A stretch of 64,000 nt of DNA. It comes from Candidatus Aminicenantes bacterium UBA2199. GTDB taxonomy: Bacteria; Acidobacteriota; Aminicenantia; UBA2199. A program made the position numbers. This document shows, piece by piece, positions 24,001 through 30,000 of the stretch (within the stretch, counting starts at the first letter, position 1; each line of letters starts with the position of its first letter). Location of the stretch: the NCBI GenBank assembly GCA_002327965.1, contig DCVB01000002.1:27009-91008 (forward strand). The letters run 5' to 3'.

Positions 24001-27000
24001 CGTTCTTCATGTGGGTGAACTACATCGAGCCCCACACCCCTTACATCCCCCCGGCCGAGTTCGTCCGCGAACACCCGCCCGGGCGCGACCTGCGCACGCT
24101 GGAGCACTACGTTTTGCCCAAAAGGGTGCGCAGCGAGATCGAGGAGAACCAGGAATTCCATGAGGGGTATTACACCGCGCGCTACGACGGCGCCGTGCGC
24201 TTCGTCGATGCCGAGATCGGCCGGATCATCGACGCCGTCTTCGCCCGCGGGCTGGACAAGAACACCGTCGTCATCGTCACCGCCGACCACGGCGAGGACC
24301 TGGGGGAGCGGAACTACTTTTTCGACCACGGCGCGCTGACCTTCACCGCCGGGGCGCGCGTGCCGCTGCTGGCCCATGTTCCCGGCCGCAAGCCGAAGCG
24401 GGTCACGACCCCGGTCAGCATCATGGACATCTATCCCACCGTCCTGGAGCTCCTGGGCAAGGAGCCGCCCTACCCGCTGCAGGGGATCAGCCTTTTTGCC
24501 CCGCGCCCCGACCGCCTGCTGCACATCGTGGGCATCGGCAGCCATGCCGTGGTGCGCAACGGCCAACACTATGTCAGCGTGTCGCCCAAGCTGTCCAAGA
24601 GGCTGCGGCTGGCCCCGGAACATTTCTACGATCATTTCGCCGACCCGCTGGAGACGCGGAACATCTACAGCCGCCACGCCGCCGACGCCCGGGCCCTGAA
24701 TGCCCAATACGACGCTTTCATCCGCCAGTTCGGCGACATTTTCCGGGCGCCGGACGACCAGGCCAAGCGCCAGCTCACGGAGAAGGAAAGGAAGAGCCTG
24801 GAGACCCTCGGCTACCTCTGATGAAAATATTCCCGGAAGGGTTGCTTTTTCTCCTTTTTTTGTTATAATTGAATTTTCCGAAAAAAAATCAACTAGGAGC
24901 GTGAAAATGAGAGTTTCAAGGCAGATAACTCTGGCCGGACTGGCCGTGCTGCTCTGCTTCGCCACCTCGGCCTCGCTGGGCGCCTGGATCGGCCCCATCA
25001 TCGTCGCCAACGAAGCGAACAAGATCTACGAGGACAAGGTGCCGGTCCAGTTCCATCCCTCCGGCGCCGTCTATATCGCCTGCATGGCCCACGACGAGGT
25101 CGCCGTGCGCAAGGAGATCTTTCTTTTTCGCTACATGGGCAGCGGCAGCAGGGGCGAGAAGGTCGGCAAGGTCTCTGACGGCAAGAAGTACTGCTACGAG
25201 CCCGACATGGTCATCACCGACGACGGGGTCGTGCACATCACCTGGGCCGAGGCCGCTACCGCCGGCGCCGACCAGCAGTCGATCATGTACCGCGCCTACG
25301 ACAACGGCACCTGGGGCCCCATCCAGGTCATCAAGACGATGAACATCCCCGGCACCCTCGACCCCTCCAGCTTCAACAAGGAGAAGATCGACGACCTGAA
25401 GATCGCCGTGGACAGCAACGGCAACGTGTTCACGGCCTTCATGACCTGGCCGCTCGCCCGCTGCAAGTTCATCAGCCGCTACGGCACGACGGTCAAGGAA
25501 GAAAACTGGCCCCTGGGCGGACGCAGCAAGCATCCCAGCCTGCGCGTGGACAACAACTACGTGCACCTCGCCTGGCAGCAGCTGCTGGGCGCCTACACCG
25601 TCTATTACGCCCGGCGCCCGAACACTCCCGTCGCCTCCTGGCAGAAAGTCGACATCAAGGGCGGCATTCACCGGCCGGTGATCGACCTGGACCAGAACGG
25701 CAACGCCCATGTCGCGTACATGGCCGATGACGGCGACAAGCGCCAGGTCGTTTACAAGTACTGGACGGGCAACGGCTTCTCCCAGAGGCAGACCATCACC
25801 GAGTACGGCAGCCTGTATCAGAATGTCGAGATGACGGTCAAGGACGACAAGAACATGATCGTGACGGCCGGTATTTTCCAGGCCACGGCTACCTCGTTCA
25901 TGTTCAACTGGAGAAAGAACGGCGTCTGGAACCCGCAGGGCATGGTGCTCCTGCCGGGAGCGTCCGGTGCCTTCGACAACCCGGCCTCTGAACTAAGCAG
26001 CAACGACATCGCCGCCTTCGTCTACAACGACGGACCTTACGTCTTCCTGATACTGAGCGAGCAGCTGGTGATCAACGAGATGCCCGTCGCCGTGCTCAAC
26101 GCCGACAAGGAAACCGTGTATTGGGACGAGGAGGTCGCCTTCAACAGCAACGGCAGCTACGACAAGGACGGCACGATCGTCAAGTACGAGTGGCGGGTGA
26201 TCCAGGATAACGTGCTCCTCGAGGGGCCGAGCGTCACCTATCGCTTCAACAAGAGCTACAACAATGTCCGCGTGCGCCTGACCGTCACCGACGACAAGAA
26301 CGGCCGCAGCCACGCCGAGAAGGTCATCAGCGTCAAGGCGCTCTACACCGCGCCGGCCACCTGGTCGCTGCAGAAAGTGCGCACGCTGGTATACAACCGC
26401 GACGGCTACGTCGTCCGCTGGGAGCCCAATCCCAAGAATGAAGCCGGCGGCTACACCATCGTCAAGTACAAGATCTTCCGCAAGGAAGGCGACGGCGAAT
26501 ACCAGGAGATCGGCGAAGTGGACGGCGGCAAGCGCTCGTTCGCCGATGTCACGATCGATGCCGGCAAGACCTACCATTACGCCGTGTCGTCGGTCGACGA
26601 TCAGGGCCGGAAGAGCCCCTACGATAATTTCTAGAGGATCGGCCCGCCGGCAACGGTGGCCGCTGTCCGCGTGGATGGCTGAATCCAAACATAGCAAAGG
26701 AGCAGCGATGAAGAACAAAGTACATGCATTCTTGTTGACAGGGATCTGGTTGCTTGGGGTTTCGCTGGCGGCGGTCGCCGCCGACGCCCCGAAGAAGGAA
26801 AAATGCCCGGGGCGCGTGACCGTCATGCTGGAGACCGTCCAGCCGGCCCCCTTCGTGGAATACGCCCGCCTGTCGGGAAAGGCGCAGCCTGAAGTGGTTG
26901 CTTTGCCCAGCCCGGTCGCCGGCCTGGTGTCGGAGATCAAGGTCGTCGAGGGCAGCCTGGTCGATGCCGGCCAGGAGCTGGCCGTTTTGAACGCCGGCAT

Positions 27001-30000
27001 GGACGAGAGGGTAAAAGCCCTCGAGGATGAGGCCGCCAGGAGGAAAAAGATCCTGACCGCCCGGCAGAACTGGAAAGAAAAGAGCGAGCGCGCCATCCAG
27101 TCGGCCGAGAAGGATTACCAGTCGGCGCTGTCCGAGCTGGAGGCGGCCCGCTCCAAGGCCGGCCGCACCATCCAAGCCCCGCTGGCCGGCATCGTGCGCC
27201 TGAAGACCACCTCCGGCGCCGAGGTCGAAGAAGGAGACCTGTTGTTTGAGATTGTCGACCCCCTGAACCTGTGGATCGATTTCCCGGTCGCGTCCGATGT
27301 CGCCTCCTTGTTCATGGCCGGAGAGACGGTCTCCGTCACGGCCGGGGAGCTGCCCGGGGAAATGGAGGCCACGGTCGTCTCGACGGGAGACCAAAAGGTC
27401 CGGCTGCGCTTGCCCAATCCCCAGGGGCGGCTGCGTGAGGGCCTGGCCATCCAGTGCCGCAGGCTGAAAAGCGAGGTTGCCGAGGCCATCGCGGTGCCCG
27501 GGAGCGCCGTCCAGAAGGACAGCCTGGGCGATTTTGTTTTCATCGCCGAAAAGAACAGGGCCAGGAAGCTGTACGTAACCCTTGCTGCCGCCGATGCGGG
27601 CCTGATCCGTGTCGAGAAAGGCCTGGAGACAGGCGCCCAACTCATCGTTTCAGGCTTTGAGTGCCTGGCCGACAACAAGAAGATCAAGGCCGCCGTCCAG
27701 CCCAAGCCGGCCGCGGTAACATCCGCAGTGGGCGACGAACCGCAGAAGCAGCGGGCCGAAGCGGCCGAGCGTGAACAGGAGGCCAAAAAGGCAGCCGCCG
27801 AGGCCGATCGCCAGAAAAAGCAGGCCGACGCCGATGCCCGCGCCGCCGCCAGGGCCCTGAAAGAAAAGGAAAAACAGGATAAGCTGGCCGCGAAGAAAGC
27901 CGCGGCCGAAGCCGCCAAGGCGGCCCGGGCCGAAAAGAAGAAGGCCGCGGCCGCTGCCCAGAAGCCCGCATGTCCCAAGAAACTCTCCGTGCTGGCTGAA
28001 GTCACGCGCCTGGAGACGTTCCGTGAATACGGCTATTACACGGCCCCGGCCATGCCCGAGACCATCAGCGTCATTGCTCCCGCATCGGGCCTACTGCATG
28101 CCCTGCGGGTTCAGGAGGGTGCCGCGGTGCAGCCGGGCCAGGAACTGCTCGCGTTCACCGTCGGCGAGAGCGAGGAGGTCGCCCGCTTGCGGCTGGATGC
28201 GGAGCGCCGGCTGAAAACGCTCGTTTCCCGCCGGGAAGCAGCGGTCAAAAACGAACGGGCCATCCAGGCGGCCGAACGCGACTATCAGAAGGCGCTGGAT
28301 CAGTTGGAGCAGAAGGCCGCTCCCTTTGCCCAGGCACTGGCCGCCCCGGTCTCGGGAGTCGTGCAGGGGCTGCAGGCGGCGCCGGGCAGCGAGATCACGG
28401 CTTCCGCCCCCCTGCTGGAGATCGTCACCGGGCAGCGGCTGCTGGTCAGCTTTCCCCTGGCAGCCGGCAGCGCCCGCTTCGTGCGGGGCGAGTCGGTCAG
28501 CGGCACGTTCAAGGAACTCGATGGGGAGTTCAGCGCCGAAGTCGTCGAATCAGACTCCGACCGGGTGGTGCTGCGCCTGGATAACTCCTCCGGCCGGATC
28601 AAGGCCGGCAGCCTCTTCACCGCCCGCCAGCTCAAGGTCGAGCACGCCGACGCCGTCTCCGTGCCGGCCGCAGCCGTCCAGCAGGACGGCCTGGGTGATT
28701 TTGTCTACGTGGTTGAAAAGAAGAAAGCCAGGAAGATCTATGTAAGGAAGGGCGCCAGCGAGGCCGGCCGGACGATGTTGGCCACGGGCCTCGGCAGCGG
28801 GGCCACCCTGATCCTTTCCGGCTTCGATTGCCTGGCGGAAGGCAAAAAGGTCATCGTGGTCGACGAGGAGCAGCTGGCCAGGGAAAAGGAAGCCGCGGCG
28901 GTAAAGGCAGAGGAAGCGCCCGGGCCGGCCATGCCCGGCATCGATGAGTTCATCGCCTACCTGGAAGCGAACCGCGAAGCCCTGGGCTACGACCGTTATG
29001 AGCGCACGGAGTCCGGACGCCGGCCGGCGGTGCGGATCGTTTCCAGCCTGGAGACCCAGAAACAGCTCCTCGAACTGCTTCGCCAATATTCCGTGGCCGA
29101 GGTCAGCATGGAGCTCAAGGAAGAACGCGTGGTTTCCACCATCATCTTCAAGACTCCGGCGCGTTTGCCGAAGGAGAGACCGGCGCGGGTCGAGAAGGCC
29201 GGGCTGTTCGGCGGCCGGCTGAGTTTAGCCGTCCACGGCACGTACTACATGATGTTCGACGAGAACTTCAAGGAATCCTATGTCAGCCTGGGCGGCTTCG
29301 GCGGCGAGCTGGCTTTCCGCCTCGCCAAGATGGATATCTGGGTCAGCGGCGGCCTGGCCATGAAGAAGAACACCCCCGAGTGGAGTCCCGACGAGATGAA
29401 GTTCACGCTCATCCCACTGTCGGCGGCCCTTCGCTATTATTTTGTGGAGAAAGACAAGCTGAGCGCCTATGTCGGCGCCGGGCCCATCGTGTTCCTGGTC
29501 AAGGACGTCAATCCGGCCGGCGACATCAAGACGACGCTCATCGGCGCCAATGCCCTTGTCGGCGGGAACTACAAGTTGTCGCGCAAATTGTTCGCTCAGC
29601 TGTTCGTGAAATTCAACCTGGCCCAGAAGGATCTGTATCCCGAATCCGACCTGGACGACCCCTTGAACCTGACGGGACTGGAATTCAATCTGGGCATCGG
29701 CATCCGCCTGTAATTCATCGCATTCAAGGCCGGGGCGCCGCCGTCGGCGGCGCCCCGGATCGACCTGCCCGGCGGGGATCAGGGATCCTTTTTCGGCACG
29801 TAAATAAATGAGGGTCTCAGCCTGTTTCCGGTCACCGGCCAAAAGACTTTCTTATCGGCAAAGACCATCCCGCTGAAGTCATAATGTCGTTGCAGCTCCG
29901 GCTTCTGCCAGTTGTGCTTGTCCAGGATGAGGGCGCTGAAGCGCCTGGCTGCGATGGCCTCGGCGAATTCCCTTTTCAGATTTTCAGCGATCGGGCCGTT

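Follow-up and report, generated by a model that had tools for sequence, protein, structure and literature searches.

A Tandem Periplasmic Adaptor Fused to a Predicted Outer-Membrane Barrel and Encoded Next to a Secreted Propeller Protein in Candidatus Aminicenantes

Introduction

Periplasmic adaptors, also called membrane fusion proteins (MFP), are components of tripartite pumps, and those described so far are all anchored at the inner membrane (PMC13328181, PMC4446572). The classical ones dock to channels of the TolC type through the RLS motif, located at the tip of an alpha-hairpin (PMC13328181). The dimer is accepted as their functional unit, and both the natural pair TriA/TriB, whose members are 36% identical, and functional tandem fusions of AcrA are known (PMC4446572, PMC13328181). 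Here we analyze a gene located at positions 26708-29713 (+ strand) of a 64,000-nucleotide (nt) stretch from Candidatus Aminicenantes bacterium UBA2199 (contig DCVB01000002.1, positions 27,009 to 91,008; this whole stretch is called the window below), in which two modules of this adaptor fold are joined in a single polypeptide to a C-terminal beta-barrel of the outer-membrane type.

An initial annotation of the window, made from its sequence, had proposed this composition and had interpreted the protein as an envelope-spanning tether or scaffold and not as an efflux component. As shown below, the tandem-adaptor and barrel architecture is genuine on solid grounds, and from it we infer the function. 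Its domains are known and their combination is undescribed, since our literature searches found no barrel-fused or outer-membrane-anchored adaptor and the reviews describe only adaptors anchored at the inner membrane. The protein probably does a different job from that of the described adaptors.

Two Adaptor Modules in a Single Chain

The open reading frame (ORF) encodes 1001 amino acids (aa), and every peptide block quoted in the initial annotation was found in its translation, namely the pairs AIQSAEKDYQSALSELE / AIQAAERDYQKALDQLE and VPGSAVQKDSLGDFVFIAEKNRARKLYV / VPAAAVQQDGLGDFVYVVEKKKARKIYV and the C-terminal LEFNLGIGIRL. When the protein was searched against the NCBIfam profiles, TIGR01730 (RND_mfp) gave 175 bits, with a cut-off of 94.9, over two matched stretches, and HlyD_3, HlyD_D23 and Biotin_lipoyl_2 were also matched in Pfam. 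AlphaFold2 (AF2) models, built on a 38-sequence family alignment, and Foldseek comparisons agree with the profile in delimiting two modules. Module 1 (aa 33-328; 26804..27691, +) contains the membrane-proximal (MP), beta-barrel, lipoyl and alpha-hairpin domains and a Cys33/Cys319 pair. Its hairpin (aa 99-151; 27002..27160, +) is made of helices 99-121 and 127-151 and has a tip with L116, R119, W122, K123 and A133 conserved in the family. Module 2 (aa 422-718; 27971..28861, +) has hairpin helices at 489-510 and 516-540 and a Cys422/Cys708 pair.

In Foldseek, the modules align over the full target length to adaptors of known structure, such as TMexC (9j3d_D, 338/338 columns), MexA, AcrA and ZneB, with 6ta5_D and 3lnn_A also among the structures matched, and the sequence search agrees. 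The modules therefore show both the four-domain adaptor fold and a profile score above the cut-off, and they belong to the adaptor fold family. The AF2 model of the whole protein has a mean predicted local distance difference test score (pLDDT) of 81.6, and the predicted TM-score of the monomer, 0.36, is uninformative on the arrangement of the domains relative to each other.

The collinear blocks had been read as the trace of an internal duplication, which is confirmed by the comparison of modules 1 and 2, with 42% identity across 298 aa (E = 1e-69). In nucleotide sequence, the best in-register block between the modules extends for just 63 nt, with 71% identity, and the GC content is even. Given this low identity in both protein and DNA, the repeat is an old duplication and not a collapsed or duplicated assembly repeat.

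The modules are connected by a spacer of around 90 aa (aa 329-421; 27692..27970, +), composed of 39% Ala, 18% Lys and 12% Glu, which in the AF2 model is disordered at 330-354 and then forms a single 62-residue helix (355-416, pLDDT ~60-73). A short Lys/Glu/Ala helical spacer follows module 2 (aa 719-744, with an AF2 helix at 720-734; 28862..28939, +), and a consensus 'EEELAKEKAEA' comes after every module across the family. Next to it lies an unannotated small domain that we call 'mid' (aa 745-814; 28940..29149, +), for which no Pfam or PDB sequence match was obtained and which AF2 folds as alpha-beta-beta-alpha-beta-beta with pLDDT ~88-89. A disordered linker (aa 815-837, pLDDT <50; 29150..29218, +) leads to the barrel, in such a way that 120 aa separate the barrel from module 2. 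The Lys/Ala/Glu-rich linker and the small domain that had been proposed are thus both present.

An Eight-Stranded Barrel of the OmpA/OmpW Type

The C-terminal region (aa 838-1001 plus the stop codon; 29219..29713, +) had been described as an OmpA/OmpW-sized barrel, and structure prediction bears this out. The AF2 model of aa 719-1001 (283 aa) has a mean pLDDT of 84, with values >90 across most of the barrel, and shows eight strands between residues 838 and 1000. Foldseek matched this barrel to the transmembrane domain of OmpA (1bxw), OmpW (2f1v), NspA (1p4t), OmpX (1qj9) and the N-terminal domain of OprF, with E ~1e-7 and TM-scores of 0.72-0.77. The strands are 17-19 aa long and form a closed antiparallel barrel, in which the periplasmic turns measure 2, 2 and 4 aa and the external loops 11, 8, 2 and 18 aa, and six of the eight strands show the alternation of hydrophobic and polar residues expected for lipid and lumen faces. 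This arrangement is typical of outer-membrane proteins. The C-terminus ...GLEFNLGIGIRL ends in Leu, within a beta-signal-like LEFNLGIGIRL, and an aromatic or hydrophobic last residue is the rule over the family (F in 55, L in 22 and I in 6 members, 83/90).

The C-terminus of the 1001-aa protein had no Pfam match at E <= 0.1, PF13505 and OmpW included; many of its homologs carry a precomputed PF13505 (OMP_b-brl) assignment, and one has a weak OmpW match. The barrel is not a factor of the TolC type, as it corresponds to the monomeric eight-stranded OmpA/OmpW class and the OEP profile was unmatched.

Related barrels are found in nature in other combinations, which are a signal peptide plus the barrel, a signal peptide plus mid and the barrel (P0069, P0109 and ORFs in loci L019 and L020), and a signal peptide plus AMIN, a charged linker and the barrel. 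A search for barrel-only homologs gave just two fragment proteins. AMIN is a peptidoglycan-binding domain, and P0134, P0164 and ~15 similar proteins (340-375 aa) have an N-terminal AMIN (PF11741, E = 2.4e-11), a Lys/Glu-rich linker and a related barrel; judged by their domain content, they are a predicted link between outer membrane and peptidoglycan like OmpA, with the domain order reversed. As the same type of barrel joins adaptor, AMIN or mid, it looks like a modular outer-membrane anchor from which these bacteria would hang different periplasmic modules, and its reuse points to a modular hanging of periplasmic functions from the outer membrane.

The stand-alone forms with signal peptide, mid and barrel, free of adaptor, at L019:3342-4184 and L020:12759-13730 alternate with BNR/PKD/FN3 genes, and it seems that barrel and propeller proteins are paired.

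A Family of Adaptor-Barrel Fusions

In a first search for homologs, 39 relatives were obtained, the majority from metagenome-assembled genomes (MAGs) of Candidatus Aminicenantes and Acidobacteriota, named in databases 'hypothetical protein', 'biotin/lipoyl-binding protein' or 'HlyD family ... adaptor'. A profile search of 1.84 billion representatives followed by a domain census with hidden Markov models identified 90 adaptor-barrel fusions (sequence clusters), the majority of them again from Aminicenantes/Acidobacteriota. The commonest form has a single module: the MFP-barrel arrangement accounts for 47 members, MFP-mid-barrel for 12, MFP-MFP-mid-barrel and mid-MFP-barrel for 11 each, MFP-MFP-barrel for 6, mid-MFP-MFP-barrel for 2, and a triple-module MFP x3-barrel for one (P0046, 1331 aa). 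The tripartite architecture proposed initially is conserved, and >20 orthologs have the tandem arrangement. The mid domain is mobile in the family, being found before the adaptor, after it, or alone with the barrel.

In MAGs labelled 'Patescibacteria group', 'uncultured Clostridia' and 'Chrysiogenales' (loci L016, L017, L020 and L021), the cluster is shared with 58-73% identity to the Aminicenantes version, and these taxon labels are probably labelling or binning errors.

In all 90 members, the N-terminal Sec signal peptide has an AxA-like site and precedes a conserved K-C-P-x-K-V motif, and a lipobox-like string appears only in 4 of them. In the UBA2199 protein the signal peptide spans aa 1-24 (26708..26779, +; a helix in AF2) and has an AVA|AD cleavage motif and no lipobox. 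Neither an N-terminal lipid, nor a transmembrane helix, nor an uncleaved signal peptide that could act as inner-membrane anchor was detected, the cleavage being a prediction, and module 2 is internal to the chain. Anchoring as a lipoprotein through the conserved N-terminal Cys was considered and discarded: this Cys lies well past the signal peptide after 'K-x-K', recurs in module 2, and pairs with a C-terminal Cys. In fact, a Cys near the module start and another near the module end co-occur in 105/111 modules. Because both chain ends of an adaptor sit in its MP domain, the pair would form a structural disulfide staple closing each module, which fits a periplasmic location.

The MP is the most conserved sub-domain, with 16/78 columns at >=80% identity (80-97% level), followed by the hairpin tip residues L116, R119, W122, K123 and A133, and the hairpin length is 61-64 aa in 105/111 modules. 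The RLS motif R-x3-L-x6-S is not kept in the family; only its Leu is conserved (L116, 89%), the Ser position being occupied by Lys (90%) and the Arg position being unconserved. The inter-module spacers of the tandem homologs range from 46 to 135 aa and all have a high content of Ala, Lys, Glu and Gln, and the linkers between adaptor and barrel have a median of 44 aa (range 12-166), with only 12-26 aa in some members.

A Constant Propeller Neighbour

The gene located immediately upstream (24907..26634, +), which stops 74 nt 5' of the adaptor-barrel gene, encodes a secreted 575-aa protein with a BNR_4-type propeller, PKD and a C-terminal FN3-like domain (PKD_4, PKD and FN3con matches). A second secreted paralog of 600 aa, also with BNR-type propeller, PKD and FN3 (32296..34098, +), shows 34% identity to the first over 591 aa and is kept downstream in most loci. 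The same anatomy is found in the propeller neighbours of the family, which are secreted, have a repeat-rich beta region and usually PKD, and share a common C-terminal FN3-like domain.

A gene of this propeller family directly adjoins the adaptor-barrel gene in 19/19 loci surveyed (some redundant), and it is the one neighbour found at every locus with readable flanks. This holds for divergent clades, where the adjoining gene is annotated as BNR_2 (next to P0055) or as BNR_4 plus PKD (next to P0060 and P0056), these BNR_4 plus PKD neighbours being homologous end-to-end to the two paralogs of the window (E = 1e-59 and 1e-53). The wider context of the last two loci is unrelated, with peptidase S8 and toxin-antitoxin genes by P0060, and asparaginase and pyrimidine-biosynthesis genes by P0056. 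Since the adjacency of the propeller gene persists in unrelated contexts, the conserved unit is the gene pair and not a glycan cluster.

Two other associations were considered and rejected. The presence of mid in the fusion co-varied perfectly with PKD in the neighbour in the first 18 intact loci, and was broken by P0056 (PKD without mid) and by P0055 (mid with BNR_2 only). The polytopic proteins TM712 and TM588, considered as obligatory partners, were missing from L032 and L033, which are divergent loci.

With respect to the initial annotation, the secreted BNR/PKD proteins were correctly placed beside the gene and the phosphotransferase-like enzymes assigned to its other side were not: phosphodiesterase and sulfatase genes lie upstream in the operon, and a PMT_2 glycosyltransferase and a methyltransferase are found downstream. 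The predominance of the single-module form, the barrel as a reusable anchor, and the constant BNR-propeller/PKD/FN3 partner gene go beyond what had been noticed.

Comparison with Pump Adaptors and Other Envelope Systems

In the whole window, no ATP-binding cassette (ABC) ATPase with Walker A plus LSGGQ, no transporter with the size of a resistance-nodulation-division (RND) pump, and no match to OEP, Wza or Wzc were found. Pump genes (ABC, RND or TolC-type) were likewise absent from 17 related loci, within 10-kb flanks, and from 5 divergent loci, within ~10 kb. The lack of an adjacent pump gene noted initially thus extends to 22 related loci, in none of which, nor in the window, is an RND, ABC or major facilitator superfamily pump encoded alongside the adaptor. 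As the protein lacks the inner-membrane anchor, the operon with a transporter and the RLS motif, it is not to be filed as a tripartite-pump adaptor in spite of the fold of its modules. The proposal that it is not an efflux component is likely correct, and it falls short of proof because a partner pump could be encoded elsewhere.

Compared with the RND adaptors AcrA, MexA, TMexC and ZneB, collected in TIGR01730, each module here has the same full four-domain fold, whereas the protein would be held at the outer membrane through its C-terminal barrel, has no N-terminal lipid or transmembrane anchor and no linked pump or channel gene, does not keep the RLS motif, closes each module with a Cys pair, and carries two modules per chain. 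TriA/TriB and the engineered AcrA-AcrA likewise employ two adaptor units as one, with 36% identity between the former as compared with 42% here. By contrast with these inner-membrane-anchored pump components, the present case is a natural fusion, with a long helical spacer, an outer-membrane anchor and no linked pump.

OmpA and the AMIN-linker-barrel proteins also use a small eight-stranded barrel to anchor a periplasmic module through a flexible charged linker. With respect to OmpA, the order is reversed here, with the periplasmic part at the N-terminus and the barrel at the C-terminus, and the periplasmic part is an adaptor instead of a peptidoglycan-binding domain. Domain II of TolA is a long periplasmic helix rich in Ala, Lys and Glu, and resembles the inter-module spacer in composition and in its prediction as a single helix. 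Here, neither the inner-membrane anchor nor domain III of TolA is present. Finally, in the TpsB/TpsA and Slam systems an outer-membrane barrel protein is encoded next to its secreted partner, which is a surface lipoprotein in the case of Slam. The strict adjacency of a barrel protein with a periplasmic domain and a secreted partner gene is the same, whereas the barrels of these systems are made of 16 or 14 strands and are accompanied by POTRA or TPR domains, as compared with eight strands and an adaptor here.

Working Model and Alternatives

The protein would be fixed only in the outer membrane, since it has a typical cleavable Sec signal peptide without lipobox or transmembrane anchor. This does not support the envelope-spanning tether proposed initially, as no peptidoglycan-binding domain (OmpA_C, SLH, LysM or AMIN) was matched in the 1001-aa protein in Pfam or NCBIfam either. 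After cleavage of the signal peptide, the barrel would insert in the outer membrane and serve just as an anchor and not as a duct, because eight strands are too narrow and related barrels anchor AMIN or mid alone. Hanging from this membrane, the modules would have the MP domain at the top and the hairpin directed inward, inverted with respect to AcrA, an orientation suggested by the location of the adaptor chain ends in the MP domain together with the linkers of 12-26 residues to the barrel in some members. They would probably self-assemble into rings as other adaptors do, three tandem chains providing six modules; six is divisible by each of the observed module numbers (1, 2 and 3), which is compatible with a hexamer. 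The constant hairpin length, the conserved MP domain and the conserved tip imply that the modules would have a fixed partner, and the candidate for it is the propeller protein, predicted to be co-transcribed, as the sole constant genomic candidate, in such a way that the two-gene pair would be the working unit. The adaptor-barrel protein would act as a docking scaffold that positions the propeller protein at the outer membrane, in this genome within an envelope-glycan pathway.

We put forward tentatively this outer-membrane-tethered, inverted adaptor scaffold working with the propeller protein, and not a drug-efflux adaptor, as a plausible reading that falls somewhat short of probable. A more ambitious version, in which adaptor-barrel and propeller constitute an unrecognised outer-membrane machine, with an inverted ring as platform for display, secretion or glycan processing, seems to us possible but rather doubtful. 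Several points weigh against the scaffold reading. The adjacency of the adaptor-barrel and propeller genes may mean mere co-regulation or a shared pathway and not a physical contact, and no case is known to us in which a beta-propeller is bound by an adaptor. Both the ring and the inverted orientation are things that we infer, and the 120-aa connection between module 2 and the barrel in this protein constrains the orientation less than the short linkers of other members. The MP domain is the one that binds the transporter in classical adaptors, so its conservation could equally mean an unseen remote transporter. In addition, the triple-module P0046 (L029:149-4144) is a sole case, and its contig ends too soon to show what lies upstream.

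An outer-membrane-tethered, pump-unlinked adaptor family without the channel-docking motif would widen the known roles of the fold and, if the machine with the propeller were true, there would be a new functional class for it, with naturally covalent two- and three-module forms. The engineered AcrA tandems and TriA/TriB, the cases that argue for the dimer as functional unit, have in these natural chains an evolutionary counterpart. The strict pairing with the propeller gene offers a concrete two-component envelope system in Aminicenantes, which are represented here by MAGs alone.

One alternative is that the protein is an adaptor of an efflux or type-1-secretion-like system whose pump, and perhaps its channel, is encoded elsewhere, the barrel replacing the lipid or transmembrane anchor in the outer instead of the inner membrane. 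In such a system the tandem modules would mimic the adaptor dimer, as in TriA/TriB, and three chains would build a hexameric sleeve over an RND or ABC transporter. The modules are complete, score far above the RND_mfp cut-off and superpose on adaptors of assembled pumps, their most conserved part is the transporter-contacting MP domain, pumps with two adaptors occur naturally, tandem fusions of AcrA are functional, and chains of one, two or three modules suit a hexamer. However, adaptor genes almost always share an operon with their pump, and none was found within ~10 kb in the 22 related loci or in the window; the TolC-docking tip motif is unconserved, and the short linkers of some members place the MP domain by the outer membrane, distant from an inner-membrane pump. 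On balance we consider this explanation unlikely.

To a similar degree, we find it unlikely that the protein is a passive envelope tether or spacer, with the barrel in the outer membrane, modules and spacers acting as struts, and the number of modules setting the reach to peptidoglycan or inner membrane. The spacers similar to TolA domain II between modules, the variable module number, and the existence of related barrels that carry peptidoglycan-binding AMIN in separate, clearly tether-type proteins are in agreement with it. A pure strut, however, needs neither a constant hairpin length, nor a conserved tip, nor an MP domain conserved at 80-97%; moreover, an element binding peptidoglycan or anchoring to the inner membrane is absent from the protein, and the obligatory propeller neighbour is left unexplained.

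Lower still is the probability that we assign to a device dedicated to exporting the adjacent propeller/PKD/FN3 protein or to displaying it at the surface, similar to TpsB/TpsA or Slam, in which the cargo would be taken up in the periplasm by the adaptor ring. The unit made of an outer-membrane protein and an adjacent secreted protein is conserved over unrelated contexts, PKD and FN3 are typical of extracellular proteins, and strands of 17-19 aa would protrude past the membrane as in OmpX and Ail. But an eight-stranded barrel has no pore for a protein, the Pfam and NCBIfam scans found no POTRA or TPR domain for cargo handling, and adaptor sleeves with the dimensions of the AcrA and MacA assemblies are too narrow for a folded 60-kDa propeller.

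Finally, an artefact of assembly or gene calling, either as a collapsed or duplicated repeat or as a false fusion, to which fragmented copies in some long-read-style assemblies might point, has a practically negligible probability, given the divergence between modules, the identical 1001-aa protein called in independent ENA, JGI and Logan assemblies from different samples, the >20 orthologs sharing the tandem layout, and the nature of the fragmented copies as overlapping-frame breaks of the same gene. Split versions of the gene (P0022+P0042 in L012, and P0041 in L013/L021) were accordingly rejected as separate genes, being overlapping-frame fragments from error-prone assemblies. In L012:5870-8846 and in L013/L021 the ortholog is broken in two assemblies named 'contig_N', which fits indel errors or pseudogenes and mimics separate adaptor and barrel genes.

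Gene Organization and Surrounding Cluster

An in-frame ATG at 26438 gives a longer alternative ORF. The start at 26708 was preferred because of a Shine-Dalgarno sequence AGGAG, read from the sequence 5 nt 5' of this ATG (26698..26702, +), the end of the upstream gene at 26634, the independent gene calls, and the N-termini of all homologs.

The adaptor-barrel gene is the last of a co-oriented block in which a secreted type I phosphodiesterase-fold enzyme comes first (22141..23433, +; Pfam Phosphodiest, E = 1.9e-22; a 430-aa gene call in an identical contig), followed by a secreted sulfatase-fold enzyme (23433..24821, +; Pfam Sulfatase, E = 1.1e-48; a 462-aa gene call), kept upstream in many loci, and by the BNR/PKD gene. 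A sigma-70-type promoter, TTGACA-16-TATAAT (22076..22103, +), matches the consensus at 12/12 positions directly 5' of the phosphodiesterase gene and, given the common orientation and the short gaps, would drive the four genes. This perfect consensus occurs in a genome of 63% GC. Downstream, the gene is followed by a convergent PMT_2 glycosyltransferase gene of the GT-C class and a methyltransferase gene. Between the two convergent genes there is a perfect 13-bp GC-rich hairpin, CCGGGGCGCCGCC-GTC-GGCGGCGCCCCGG (29730..29758), likely a bidirectional terminator, which a simple terminator scan missed because it lacks a T-run.

The gene is surrounded by a large envelope-glycoconjugate cluster that extends from ~9 kb to 57 kb of the window. 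Its enzymes include five short-chain dehydrogenase/reductase (SDR) epimerases/dehydratases, two PMT-type GT-C proteins, three sulfatase-fold proteins, three methyltransferases and a carbamoyltransferase, and it also holds a GDSL esterase, AsnB, two GMC oxidoreductases, a ParA-like ATPase, a PHP phosphoesterase and at least four unclassified polytopic proteins. The cluster (~9000-57000) is rich in periplasm-facing chemistry, and among the ORFs scanned in it no cytoplasmic GT-A or GT-B glycosyltransferase, flippase, Wza/Wzc or ABC exporter was seen.

Four conserved polytopic membrane proteins are encoded on the - strand at 11517-13655 (712 aa), 37721-39487 (588 aa), 43618-45201 (527 aa) and 15656-17386 (576 aa). 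The 712-aa and 588-aa proteins had no Pfam, NCBIfam or PDB sequence match, and the 527-aa and 576-aa ones gave only weak hints of ArnT, PMT or LA_3751-like glycosyltransferases; as far as can be judged from the sequence, the four are probably divergent GT-C enzymes. Also on the - strand, a conserved triad at 34079-36473, which comprises the carbamoyltransferase (610 aa), a protein of 130 aa with three hydrophobic stretches and a DUF5989 protein of 52 aa, recurs in the distant loci L006, L010 and L026, and an ORF of 1121 aa at 53414-56779 (-), unmatched in Pfam and NCBIfam, has a 70%-identical counterpart in L023.

At 13652-15579 (-), genes for a cNMP-binding protein, an HATPase_c-like protein and a PHP phosphoesterase lie beside that of the 576-aa membrane protein, with orthologous stretches in L004 and L006, and this sub-cluster suggests that the cluster may be subjected to nucleotide-dependent regulation. 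A PilZ protein and a ParA-like ATPase are encoded nearby in related loci.

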